Positions 16,650 through 58,225 of a stretch of DNA of 64,000 nt are shown piece by piece. The position numbers and the translations under genes are program-made. How positions within the stretch are numbered: position 1 is the stretch's first letter; each line of letters opens with the position of its first letter. The stretch is from Eledone cirrhosa (lineage: Eukaryota): NCBI GenBank assembly GCA_964016885.1, contig OZ024742.1, positions 304,792,001-304,856,000 on the forward strand. Reading direction: 5' to 3'. Below the pieces are notes generated by a model. It searched no databases and had not been told where the DNA came from. It saw only the letters and a program-made list of their open reading frames with translations.

Positions 16650-17004
16650 CAATGATATTAAATAAATGGAAACTATATTTGTAAAACCATATATATTCTA
16701 TTATATATATTTCAAGGGTACCAACAATTTTGGTACGCTATCATCAGATAAAATACGAAGTGTTTTATAACTATTTGACATGACCAAGGATAACATATGT
16801 TAACGGTTCAAGTTATCCCTGGATAAGATTTCCAGGGATAACTTGAACCGTTAACGTATATTATCCTTGGTCATGTCAGATATTTATAAAACACTTCGTA
16901 TTTTATCTGATGATAGCGTACCAAAATTGTTGGTACCCTTGAAATATATATAATAGAATAAATATTTTTTTATAAATATAGTTTCCATTTATTTAATATC
17001 ATTG
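16650..17004. mobile_element. Foldback HHR element, family C (174-bp arms, 7-nt spacer), (TA)n-flanked
   Basis: Arms 16650-16823 and 16831-17004 are near-perfect reverse complements; TA repeats lie at both ends. Confidence 0.9.
16899..16960 (+). ncRNA. Type I hammerhead ribozyme, family C (mirror copy on the minus strand at 16694-16755)
   Basis: TATTTTAT-CTGATGA-TAGCGTACCAAAATTGTTGGTACCCTT-GAAA-TATATA-TA-ATAGAATA: 8-bp stem I, stem II GTACCAA/TTGGTAC, palindromic loop III. Confidence 0.85.
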
Positions 17005-17054
17005 TATATATATATATATATAGAGAGAGAGAGGGGGGGGGGGGGGGGGGGGGG

Positions 17055-17146
17055 TAAGAGTCAGGACCCCGACGGCTGAACTCCGGCTGTTTCGACAGCT
17101 AGATTCAAACTAACCCACCAGTATTAGAACGGTGGGAATCTAGCTG
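17055..17146 (-). mobile_element. Diverged family F cassette with a short internal inversion
   Basis: Minus strand TAGCTGTCGAAACAGCCGGAGTTCAGCCGTCGGGGTC resembles 19508-19543; contains a CAGCTAGATTC...GAATCTAGCTG inverted repeat. Confidence 0.45.
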
Positions 17147-18959
17147 AACTTATCAAGAGGTACAGTCCATATATGGGCATGCAGTCAACACAAAAAAAAA
17201 CCCAGAAATATCAAAGCAAATAATTCTAAAGATGTGTTGTTTTTTTTTGTCTATCACGGGGAGTGGTCAATAACTTGGGATGTCGTGTACATGGTTAGAT
17301 TCCTTCATAGCGGCGGGATGCTGAACTGGCCTGTAGAACAAATGGGCACCGAATGCAATCGTGAATACACATACAGCATGTTTCTACAAATATCCCATGT
17401 TATCCATCCACTCACGAGACAGACAGGGGAGTATCGCCAGATGTCGTCATTTTTCCAGTTTTCTTTTTTTTTACATTTTCTCCACTATCACCACACAACA
17501 TCTAATACATCATATCCCAGAATTCAATGCTTTATTTTATTTCCTTATATCTGCTCTTCTTGCTTTATTCATATTCATCGCTCTCATTAAACTTCCTCTC
17601 TCTTTGACTTTCTCTTTTTCACTTTACTTTCTCACTCTAGAGCTCATCCTTTACACTTTGGTTTTTTTCCCCTCCTCACCTTATTCATTTTAATATCTCT
17701 CCCTCTAGCACTACCGCTCCTCTCCACATTCTATCTACTTTATTTTTATCTAACTTCCACATATTATCGTTACACCTTTCTTATTACTATCCTCTATTTT
17801 ATTTACTCACACTCTCTTCATTCCCGATCTCTTCACCTAAGTTCCCTTCTCACAAGTAACAAAATTATTTTGCTACATTCTCTCTTCTTTTTTATCTCTT
17901 TCACTTACCTACTCCTTTTCTTTGTTTCATTCTCTCTCTCTCTCTCTCTCTCTCTCTCTCTCTCTCTCTCTCTCTCTCTCTCTCTCTCTCTCTCCCCCTC
18001 TCTCTTTCTCTCCCTCTCTCTCTCTCTCTCTCTCTCTCTCTCTAGCTCATTCTATTTCCAAACCCCTCTTTCCCGCGTCCTCTTTCCTATGCTTTCTTTC
18101 GTTCTCAAAATACCTTTTTCTTCTCTTTCTTACTCACTCTCTCTGTTTCATACTCTTTTTCCTATTCTCTCTTTCTTTTTCATAAACCTTATCTTCTCTT
18201 TCCTTTTATCTCTTTATCTCATACTCTCTCTCGCTCTCACTTTCATTCTCTCTCTTTCTCCTTCTTTCATTCATTTTCTTACACCACCTACGCTATTACA
18301 TTCTTCCTCAACACCTTTATTTCCCGCGCCACTACACCTTCAATTCTTTCACACGTATCTCCCCTCTCACGCCACAATTCTCCTCCCCCCATACTCTTCC
18401 TACCACATCCCTCACTCCCCCTCCCACCTCTCAACATAACATAGCTAACCAATCTGGCTTCATCTGATAGTGATGTCAGTGTTTATTAGGTGGGCTGTTA
18501 AGACTAATCCGCCTTCATTAAGATATTGTCGTAGTCCAGAACGTGGGATTTACTTGATGACGATCTTGTCAAAATCTAAGAGCAGGGATTAGGATGCATG
18601 GCCAAACATTGTCATCGCTGTATTCACACATGGGTGTTGCTTAACACCCTCCTCCATACTATGCTACACCAAAAGCACATACATTACAAAACCTACATAC
18701 ACAACCTAAATACAAACTTAAATACACACCAACACTTCTTCATCCTTACCATACCACCAAATATTTCTCTACAGTTTTCTGTTGTTAGTTTTTATCATAC
18801 ATTTTTTTATAACCTTTCATTTAGTTGTTTTCATTCTCTGTATGTCATGTGATTGCTCTCAACCCTGACATCTTTTTATTTATCTAATCATCTATCTATA
18901 TCTCTAATGCTTACTGTCACTTCTTTCTAAATTCCTTTATTTAAGCTCTCTCGTTTATG

Positions 18960-19240
18960 AATACATACACACACAGCCACACACACAAACACACACACAC
19001 ACAGCCACACACAGCCACACACAGCCACACACACAAACACACACACACATAGCCACACACAGCCACACACAGCCACACAAACAGCCACACAAACAGTCAC
19101 ACAAACAGCCAGACACACACACACACACACACACACACACACACACACACACACACACACACACACACACACACACACACACACAGCCACACACAGCCAC
19201 ACAAACAAACAGCCATACACACACACAGCCACACAAACAT
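18960..19240. repeat. Compound (CACACAGCCA)n/(CA)n minisatellite
   Basis: Repeated CAGCCACACA units. Confidence 0.9.
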
Positions 19241-55149: not shown

Positions 55150-55628
55150 CAATCAAAGGGCAAAGGGCAAAGGGCAAAGGGCAAAGGAGCTCTTAAGAGT
55201 CAATGGCCATCCAAAATCACCGGGAGAGATGACCCTTTAGCCTTTGTCAAGGCAGAATTCTAGGAGGAAAACTTTGATATAACACCTGCAACCCTGATGG
55301 TATCCAATGATGTTGACTTGTTCTTCTTTTTGGTAAATATCATCTTGGTTAAGAGAGTGGGACTGGCTTTGTGCAGTGCCTTTGCTCACTATAAAAGCTT
55401 CACGGCACAGGCATTGCTTTATATCTGGAGATCTCTCTGCACTTGTCGTTACATGGTACCATGGGCCTAGCACTATGTGTCAATATTTGTCACAAGTGTA
55501 GTGTTTGTACCAGAGTTTTCAAGTCGCTGGCTGGACTAAAAAGTCACACTCGTTCAGCGCATCGGTAGGGGTTCTCCTACATGGATGTAAAGTAGTGGCC
55601 GTACTCGAAAACGAGTTGGCAGCCACCA
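55150..55628 (+). pseudogene. RTE (BovB-like) LINE 3' end with C-terminal C2H2 zinc finger, (TA)n-flanked
   Basis: [23 protein letters not shown] at 55497-55568. A 3'UTR hairpin ACTCG-AAAA-CGAGT (55603-55616) precedes (TA)n. Confidence 0.75.
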
Positions 55629-57339
55629 TATATATATATATATATATATATATATATATACATATATATATATGTATATATATATGTATATTTATATGTA
55701 TATATACATGTATATATGTATATATGTATATATATATGTATATATATATATATATATATATATATATATATATATATATATATATACATATATATATATA
55801 TATATATATATATACATATATATATATATATATATATATATATATATATATATATATATATATATATATATATATATACATATATATAACAATTTTCATG
55901 TAACCGCAAGTTAGGAAATCATTCCAAGAATCTATCTAACTGCCTTGCATTTTCTCACCTCCACTTACAAAATACTAAGCTATCCTCATCAAAACACCTA
56001 GTTTTTCTTTCACTCGATTCATCGTCACACCATTCTCACTCTCTTTCTCTCACACTCTTTATTTCTTCCTCTTTTCCACTCTTTCTCTCTATTTCTTCCT
56101 TTCCCTTTCTCGGATTCATTTTCCTTCTTTCTCACTCTCTGTTTCGCTCTTCTTCTTTTTCCCTATCCTCTCATTTCCTATTTCTTATACGAAGTCTTAC
56201 TATTCTACACTCAATGTTTTCATTTAGTTTCACTCTCTATTCTCTCTCTTTCCTTTCCTTCTCTTTCAATTCTCCTTCCTTCTTCTCTATATTCCTTTTT
56301 TTTTTCTAATTCAACCTCCTACCACACTGTTATATCTACTCCATTGTCTAACCTCATCACATCTACACTTTACTCGGTAATCTAGATATTTCCTATAATC
56401 TCGTCATAAAAGTGTATGTATGTATGTATGTATGTATGTATGTATGTATGTATGTATGTATGTATGCAATGTATATATGCTTGCATGTATATATGTGTTA
56501 ATATATATATATATATATATATATATAATTGTATATATATATACATATATATATATATATATACATATATATAATTGTATATATATGTAAATATATACAT
56601 ATACACATATATATATACAGAGAGAGCGGGCAAGAGAGAGAGGGAATGAGAGAGAGGGAGAGAGAGAGAGAGATACATATATATACATATATTATTGTGT
56701 GTATATATGTGTATGCATATATCTATCTTTCTTTCCATCTGATTTTGCATCTTCTATTATCTATAACCATCACCATAGCTACACATTAGACTCCATCACA
56801 TTTGTTCAAGCTATCTTAAAAATCTTTCATTACATTTATTAAACTCTCCTCCATCTTCATTTATTCGCTTATTCTAAAGCCTTTCTTCATTTTTTTCTCT
56901 TCTCACTCATTTCAAGGATTTTCTTCATTTCTCTGCTATCCGATTTTCCAGCATCTTCTCATCCAGAGCCTAAGCGTCTGTATCCCAACCGCCTTACTAC
57001 GCAAAGAAATACGTACATACACACATACTCTCACACACATATTCACAATTACACACACATACATTCCCACACACACACACATATATATATATATTTATAT
57101 ATGCATATGTAAGATATATATAGATATATACGTATGTATGTATTATGTATATATATATATATATATATATATATATATATATATATATATATATATATAT
57201 ATATATATACATATACATGCATGTGTGTGTGTGTGTGTATGTGTGTGTGTGTGTAGAAAGTAAGCAGAAACAGCAAAGCAAAGAACACAGTACAACGGTG
57301 AAACAAATTAGTTTAATGCTTGTTATAGTAGGAAAAGTG

Positions 57340-57374
57340 TCTTTCCGTTTCGGACGCTAACCTTCATCTCAAGA
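57340..57374 (-). ncRNA. Degenerate family B hammerhead (core mutated)
   Basis: Minus strand TCTT-GAGATGA-AGGTTAGCGTCC-GAAA-CG-GA-AAGA; downstream sequence matches the 4710-4790 tail. Confidence 0.45.
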
Positions 57375-57949
57375 TAGAATGAGGAATAAGAGTTGAAATA
57401 GAAAGATAAATATATGAAAGAGAAAGGAACGTAAAAACACGAGAAAAAGTATGTGTTTGTACGTATCTCTCTCTCTCTCTCTCTCTCTCTATATATATAT
57501 ATATATATATATATATATATATATATATATATATATATATATATATATATATATATATATATATATTTATATATTCTTTCTCACACCGCATTCACGGTGT
57601 ACAGTCTGCTTCTCTGACCGCTCATGAAATTCACCCAGCTTATGCTGATCGGATAACTATCATGTGGCTTGCAGTTTTCCCAACCTTCGGTTTGCTTTTC
57701 CTTCTGTTGTTTACTTGTCTCACTCGCTTTACGCGTTTCACTTGTCCCAATAGCTTATTTTAGTTATTGCTCGCACCAACCTGAGGTATCTGATTTTTAA
57801 TGCGATGAAATACCAATGATGGTTGGCAAATCACTGATAAGGGACTAATTTTATATTATGTAATCCATGTGCAACCATGCAGTATTCTTCTCCCCTTGTT
57901 TTTCATATATATATATATATATATATATATATATATATATATATATATA

Positions 57950-58225
57950 CAATGATATTAAATAAATGGAAACTATATTTATAAAACCATATTTATGTTA
58001 TTATATATATTTCAAGGGCAACCAAGACAACATTGGTACGCTTTCATCAGATAAAATACAAAGTTTGTTTTATAAATAGAGACGTATTCATGAAAATCAT
58101 ACCTTATCGGTTGGAAATCCCTATCCACTGAATTTCCAACCGATACTCCAGTTTTTTGTTGAGTGCTTTAAATCAGTTATAAACATTTATGTTTGTCGGA
58201 CTTCCAACAAATTAAATACAACTTC
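57950..58225 (-). mobile_element. Family C cassette: HHR arm (57994-58058, minus strand), 14-bp inversion junction and plus-strand tail
   Basis: Minus strand TATTTTAT-CTGATGA-AAGCGTACCAATGTTGTCTTGGTTGCCCTT-GAAA-TATATA-TA-ATAACATA. Junction is TATCGGTTGGAAAT...ATTTCCAACCGATA. Confidence 0.8.

Follow-up and report, generated by a model that had tools for sequence, protein, structure and literature searches.

Palindromic elements in TA repeats of an Eledone cirrhosa genome segment, best read as back-to-back 3'-end stumps of Penelope-like elements

The 64-kb stretch of the Eledone cirrhosa genome analysed here (contig OZ024742.1; "the window", to whose full length all feature positions refer) carries 12 palindromic or related elements listed by a first-pass annotation, a density of about one per 5 kb, as it had estimated. 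These palindromes are real and abundant, their earlier assignment to Penelope-like elements (PLEs) was correct, and the insertion geometry is already known. The elements are best read as back-to-back stumps of PLE 3' ends in TA repeats, with an inverted copy and a one-sided tail. Very probably they are insertion products of endonuclease-bearing PLEs of which little beyond the terminal repeat (pLTR, ~175 nt plus tail) was copied, and the source PLEs most likely belong to the Hydra clade or to similar TA-targeting clades. A PLE origin is supported by a Hydra-type endonuclease found in the same geometry, and by hammerheads, TA termini and the likeness of sister arms. The geometry, the opposite-strand hammerhead pairs and self-priming are not new and have all been published (PMC4209133, PMC3846280). 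The remaining interest lies in tail-only copies (2 cases), cross-family chimeras (2) and a common tail motif (~11), all from one window and of unproven meaning.

Palindromes, families and TA-repeat flanks

The window is AT-rich and animal-type (GC 27-47% per 2 kb), and its 150 TA runs together occupy 4852 nt. Self-BLAST of the window, with simple repeats masked, recovered the palindromes at 16650-17004 (94%), 32797-33149 (98%) and 36750-37113 (98%), together with shorter ones at 19455, 20274, 31063, 36609, 44721 and 45843; the elements at 46036 and 57950 are non-palindromic relatives of 16650. The proposal of at least five unrelated families holds, local scores between families being at most 30 (shuffle maxima 19-29) compared with 104 within family A. 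The families comprise: 16650, 32796, 46036 and 57950 (A); 36751 and 31063 (B); 19451, 36527 and 44637 (C); 46465 (D); and 20274 and 45843 (E).

Three of the four large palindromes deserve the description "near-perfect" that was given to all of them. The family A copy at 16650..17004 has 174-bp arms with 8 mismatches around a 7-nt loop and lacks a tail; its hammerhead cores lie at 16747(-) and 16907(+), and its stem III is TATATA. A copy of another A subfamily (32798..33236) consists of a palindrome (32798-33149; arms with 173 identities and one indel; cores 32902(-) and 33044(+)) followed by an 87-nt tail on the right. The family B palindrome at 36751..37157 has 181-bp arms with 3 mismatches and no loop, a right tail, cores at 36901(-) and 36962(+), and stem III GTAC. 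The description fails for family D (46465..46818), with 117-bp arms, a 15-bp hairpin at its centre (46671-46703), a deletion of ~87 nt in the right arm and mutations in both cores (stem III CAGCTG). Family C is asymmetric: a plus-strand tailed palindrome without a complete hammerhead (19453..19628, tail motif at 19574), and two minus-strand copies with a shorter (36528..36670, tail motif at 36582) and a longer centre (44640..44850, tail motif at 44694), the latter adjoined by a perfect (TA)265 run (44851-45380). The asymmetric palindrome of family E at 45790..45955 (minus strand, core 45884(-)) has flanks other than TA; extra E copies lie at 3722-3851 and 5750-5877, the 5750 copy between (GA)n and (AC)n rather than TA.

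Targeting of (TA)n was borne out: 21 of the 26 termini of the 12 listed elements and of a thirteenth element (23077-24747) adjoin (TA)4 or longer, compared with 1.9% of 20,000 random non-repeat positions. The common geometry claimed earlier, in which an inverted copy, itself 5'-truncated, is joined on through its 5' end, was seen in self-BLAST and in alignments, and the alignments also confirm one-sided tails in A (87 nt; absent in 16650), B (~45-55 nt) and C. Centres were said to vary between copies of a family; they do so in B, C and E within the window and at six further joints in reads, but not among the four A copies of the window, all of which turn 71-80 nt upstream of the hammerhead core.

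The read survey covered 28400-33240 in 4 of 6 runs at a likeness of 85, and its contig depth, which is no measure of copy number, was taken only as a sign of very high copy: unique flanks have a depth of ~5-10 compared with 3-8e5 in the family A bins. In 6026 and 6679 raw reads, the sequence at the loose ends before 32785 is (AT)n. Among 15 of 82 joints, four other centres were found in the A palindrome (32824>33100, 32845>33118, 32865>33093, 32917>33029), and two more joints within it (32828>33123, 32939>33013) also have other centres. In family B, 28 contigs continue from 31194 directly into TA, which marks a fixed terminus without tail, and the window copy extends to 31230; consequently B has two fixed 3' ends. 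The high-copy families, the several centres and the TA-flanked ends in reads argue against both transposon-type palindromes and assembly artefacts.

Hammerhead motifs and the endonuclease-bearing element

A strict descriptor found 14 hammerhead motifs in the window compared with a mean of 0.125 (maximum 1) in 40 exact dinucleotide shuffles, and a relaxed per-arm scan added those of E, D and the endonuclease-bearing element. Stem III varies by family and is always self-complementary (TATATA, GTAC, CAGCTG, CGATCG, TGCGCA, CTAG). A type I hammerhead near the 3' end is present in A, B, D (mutated), E and the endonuclease-bearing element, and absent from families C and G. The claim of an outward-reading hammerhead on each strand stands for 3 of the 12 elements, which keep an intact pair (16650, 32796, 36751), and fails for the other nine: both cores are mutated in 46465, a core is present on a single strand in 20274, 45843, 46036 and 57950, and four have no hammerhead (19451, 36527, 44637, 31063). 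Rfam gave no match in the window at the gathering score and, ranked by E-value over 16000-47500, no hammerhead among the best 150 of 273 matches. A read-through transcript of 16650 is predicted to form one long hairpin (-255 kcal/mol) in which the sense motif pairs with its own antisense arm. "Palindromic ribozyme" was therefore an overstatement: the RNA holds one sense motif, predicted to be buried, and single minimal hammerheads are reported not to cleave in vitro (PMC4209133). As PLE products, the hammerheads would be inherited parts of the pLTR, and they are probably inactive in place.

Further single hammerhead motifs, mostly between TA runs, occur at 31243-31590, 39501-39655, 39166-39218, 20889-21100 and 52836. 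Possible decayed minimal hammerheads were noted by eye at ~15690-15720, 4659-4747 and 57302-57389, none of which passed the descriptor. A 157-bp inverted repeat (38742-38898 / 39702-39856, 89%) surrounds a nested region with a 68-bp direct repeat and two hammerheads.

The element at 23077..24747 (minus strand), missed by the first-pass annotation, has the same palindromic layout, and its long arm encodes the C-terminal piece of a GIY-YIG endonuclease (24329-24003). HMMER found 1880 relatives of this piece at E-values up to 0.001, the best being 76% identical (E 1.9e-41); a word-index protein search with the same piece yielded 46 candidates, none of which passed. One relative of 759 aa, in which residues 654-755 are matched, carries the core motifs of reverse transcriptase (RT), DKT, RWR, a CxCX5C linker and a C-terminal endonuclease, and the remnant in the window retains CxxC, E, N and CxH. 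The Hydra clade is characterised by an endonuclease at the C-terminus in which CxxC and CxH enclose E and N, and by DKT, RWK-like and CxCX5C motifs (PMC8557442, section 11); these features would place the piece at 24329-24003, and that piece only, in this clade, as judged by motifs rather than by a tree. Position 24329 is the start of homology and 24332 that of the inverted arm, with a common TATA, indicating that the endonuclease is cut at the inversion joint, where the inverted arm begins on TATA microhomology. Both arms carry a long-loop hammerhead, intact at 24563(+) and decayed on the left, where a ~190-bp repeat with a target duplication interrupts it. Of an open reading frame (ORF) for RT plus GIY-YIG on the same terminal repeat, the endonuclease part alone was found in 23077-24747, and none for families A-G in the window.

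Several results weigh against this reading of the palindromes. Families A-G neither align to the endonuclease-bearing element nor show ORF homology, so that their link to the Hydra clade depends on architecture, on hammerheads and on a short motif. In Pfam, 19 window translations matched no family, and relatives gave only sub-threshold GIY-YIG matches. A complete hammerhead is lacking in family C. The four A centres in the window lie within 10 nt, a clustering that random truncation would not produce, and shifted centres can also be obtained by central deletion of an ancestral palindrome. No empty site was seen among 15 of the 82 joints, which is not decisive.

Origin of the inversion and rival explanations

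Sister arms of one element are generally more alike than arms of different copies: 95.6% and 100% compared with 76-90% in family A, 98.7% and 96.6% compared with 94-96.5% in B, and 92.7% and 100% compared with 81-90% in C, with 44637 as the exception (83.8%). In most elements, then, the two arms either were copied from a single template or became homogenised afterwards. This supports an inversion that arose at or soon after insertion, and it fits the fold-back origin proposed earlier, although arm-to-arm conversion gives the same pattern; tail-only copies and cross-family chimeras are not explained by fold-back alone. In the first tail-only fusion of family A (46037..46286, plus strand), an inverted tail-only piece (46037-~46112) is joined to the 5' start of a tailless arm with core 46189(+). 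The second (57950..58225, minus strand) has a tailless arm (core 58050(-)) and a 14-bp centre hairpin, followed by a tail-only piece. By alignment these inverted pieces start ~18 and ~4 nt past the arm end, respectively, and fold-back alone is therefore insufficient. The chimeras are head-to-head joins of different families. At 20142..20436 a leftward end of an A arm with its tail meets a short fold-back arm of E, with a 12-nt duplication at the joint, and the long E arm (core 20306(+)) has a rightward tail. At 31017..31230 a leftward 46-nt end piece of family F (57567-57904 type) is joined to a hammerhead-less B mini-palindrome (31063-31183) with the B tail; in other copies this F piece runs on into F sequence at 31063.

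The motif RTYGAGYRC occurs 13 times in the window (shuffle mean 4.1, maximum 11), in 12 cases with a TA run 47-92 nt downstream (background 10% for a 40-100 nt window); 9 occurrences sit in tails of four families (A, C, E, G). These tails also served to define the motif, which biases the statistics; three matches, in two further TA-bounded pieces, played no part in defining it. The motif would tie the hammerhead-less families C and G to the same class. Family G, absent from the earlier list, is an asymmetric palindrome without hammerhead at 20515..20706 (minus strand; 30-bp arms within 20641-20704, tail motif 20584). TA-bounded pieces with the tail motif and without palindrome or hammerhead lie at 19680-19838 and 11120-11318. 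Six variants of the motif gave 3 matches in the supplement of Craig et al. (PMC8557442), one of them at a 3' end, in the sequence that precedes Hydra-1_Obim, which is a weak link.

The forms described could arise as follows. A GIY-YIG endonuclease would nick the (TA)n tract, probably on both strands, as happens in vitro with an Anolis PLE, for which both target strands are nicked and extended, two RT start sites bound the tail and a dimer is predicted (PMC11167929). The pLTR RNA may then be reverse-transcribed from either of two fixed internal start sites, giving ends with or without the tail; such starts have been shown in vitro elsewhere, and two fixed termini are observed here. The cDNA would halt early, near the 5' boundary of the pLTR or at variable points, and its free end could be resolved by fold-back self-priming, by a second cDNA from the other nick, with joining at short microhomologies, or by both, so that 5' ends come to lie centrally and 3' ends outward. 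Deletion and arm-to-arm conversion may have altered copies later. The tail-only copies, the chimeras and the common motif together hint, as sequence patterns, at priming from both nicks, and such priming with short fold-back joining would explain all forms, later deletion being a live rival. More speculatively, and in our view rather unlikely, a dimeric PLE protein might prime each (TA)n nick independently, starting either at both sites of a single RNA (46036, 57950) or on RNAs from two families (20142, 31017), with fold-back bridging the gap and unrelated ORF-less families recruited through RTYGAGYRC 47-92 nt before the terminus. If so, this genome, with its very high copy, would be a natural assay of the second-strand integration step of PLEs. 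A literature search over titles and beginnings of abstracts returned no paper on cross-family head-to-head PLE chimeras or on PLE twin priming.

That the elements are true miniature inverted-repeat transposable elements (MITEs), DNA transposons inserting at TA, is suggested by their size, palindromy and TA flanks, and the window has a likely genuine example in a palindrome missed earlier (28782..29113), with equal CGAGGG termini on TA, which we take to be of Tc1/mariner type, and neither tail nor hammerhead. We regard this reading of the other elements as very improbable: equal terminal inverted repeats, a MITE feature, are confined to 16650, 46465 and 28782, the rest showing unequal ends, one-sided tails (A, B, C) or tail-only forms; 46036 and 57950 are non-palindromic; hammerheads are present; the terminal parts of sister arms are closer to each other than to other copies; and a retroelement endonuclease sits in the same geometry (23077-24747). 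The first-pass annotation was thus right to set the elements apart from MITEs. It had also considered fold-back artefacts of long-read assembly, which can hardly be credited. The centre of 32796 shows no covering contig in one run, X1 (depth 0 at 32961), but holes prove nothing; the arms differ (8 mismatches in 174, 3 in 181), the flanks are not inverted, tails recur at several loci, contigs of 1146-1147 nt from runs X1 and X2 (which may be the assembly's own sample) pass from the unique flank into the left end of 32796, showing 2 differences, and another study's raw reads contain palindromic joints in two samples.

Two further explanations bear on how PLE products came to have these forms. 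It is a distinct possibility, somewhat short of an even chance and compatible with insertion by endonuclease-bearing PLEs as a sub-case of it, that the families are dedicated non-autonomous derivatives (retrozyme-like or SINE-like RNAs, SINE meaning short interspersed element, of ~250 nt with a defined 5' end) moved in trans by Hydra-type proteins. Non-autonomous PLE derivatives have been described (bioRxiv 10.64898/2026.07.22.740005; PMC8557442), and the proposal fits the placement of all four A centres of the window at 71-80 nt upstream of the core, the tail motif common to four unrelated families, the ORF-less direct repeat with two hammerheads at 30274-30999, and a fall of summed contig depth from ~3e5 at 33065 to ~8e3 at 32953. 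With a threshold of 85%, however, divergence among subfamilies confounds that fall; autonomous PLEs likewise have pLTRs of ~180-220 nt that carry 5' palindromes (PMC3846280), and a tandem array of A-E was not found in the window. Possible rather than probable is a purely post-insertion origin of every asymmetric or chimeric form, through deletions that took place inside full palindromes or from one insertion to its neighbour in the same TA tract. Such tracts are hotspots of insertion, and in 57950 and 46465 centre hairpins of 14-15 bp are followed by microhomology jumps; but two separate A copies (75% alike overall) both break ~4-18 nt from the arm/tail boundary, and self-BLAST did not find the missing A and F remainders beyond 20142 or 31017.

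Other features, significance and known systems

A Hydra-type ORF remnant at 1..304 (minus strand) contains the linker between RT and endonuclease (195-1; independent E-value 1e-11), with its 5' end at (TA)10. By-eye guesses of PLE coding regions at 986-2262, 31243-31590 and 46952-47800 were unsupported by Pfam on window translations and by the coding-homology search. The family A pattern gave no match in metagenome contigs, and ARAGORN no tRNA in the window. A dispersed SINE-like repeat of ~190 bp ending in (ATT)n lies at 4821-5009, 11696-11893, 13600-13716, 13952-14135, 23268-23454, 28224-28444, 41108-42075 (a tandem array), 60973-61228 and 61818-62057, the copy within the left hammerhead of the Hydra element being one of these. 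Other copies of the mariner-like palindrome continue into different sequence at 28938 (~3,000-3,700 reads per run of restriction-site-associated DNA, RAD), so the window copy is centrally shortened.

For annotation, it matters that these stumps look like MITEs; automated models of PLE ends are often classed as unknown (PMC8557442). For mechanism, thousands of junctions would make it possible to distinguish fold-back from twin priming and from the joining of two templates, a question not yet settled for PLEs (PMC8557442, PMC11167929). If transcribed, each copy would supply a 175-bp duplex ready-made; in Xenopus, the repeat that is edited most is a self-folding one (PMC5625713), and by analogy we infer only that the palindromes might be linked to RNA editing.

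Non-LTR (long terminal repeat) retrozymes (PMC7229834; bioRxiv 10.64898/2026.07.22.740005) are, like the elements described here, short, ORF-less and PLE-related with a type I hammerhead, but form head-to-tail tandems giving circular RNAs, whereas the 12 listed elements are head-to-head. The TA-flanked pLTR-spacer-pLTR unit at 30274..30999 (minus strand) resembles a retrozyme 1.5-mer: a 242-bp direct repeat, a 242-bp spacer and a second 242-bp repeat (239/242 identical, period 484), with two same-strand hammerheads 484 nt apart (30908, 30424) and no ORF matches. Minimal hammerheads in the pLTRs of metazoan PLEs, with opposite-strand pairs 100-700 bp apart in Schistosoma that are probably truncated PLEs (Cervera and de la Pena 2014, PMC4209133), share the short palindromic helix III and the opposite-strand pairs; they differ in sequence families, and the likeness here is of the motif only. 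The supplement text of Craig et al., in which long runs are shortened, was searched for four of the window's hammerhead motifs without a match.

With the Hydra clade the window shares the (TA)n target, a hammerhead near the 3' end, the endonuclease at 24329-24003 and the linker at 195-1, families A-G differing in having no coding part by which to be placed. Insertions of endonuclease-bearing PLEs show the closest architecture: head-to-head inverted pLTRs (~180-220 nt), junction palindromes, a tail and proposed self-priming (Arkhipova et al. 2013, PMC3846280), and an inverted 5'-truncated copy, a one-sided tail and (TA)n targeting by Hydra elements (Craig et al. 2021, PMC8557442), whose supplement lists an inverted 5' copy for Hydra-1_Obim and Penelope-13_HM; further prior art is found in PMC8969392 and PMC13282606. 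Unlike these, the present elements are mostly ends alone, with tails of up to 87 nt compared with the 30-40 quoted, and belong to five or more families at about one element per 5 kb.

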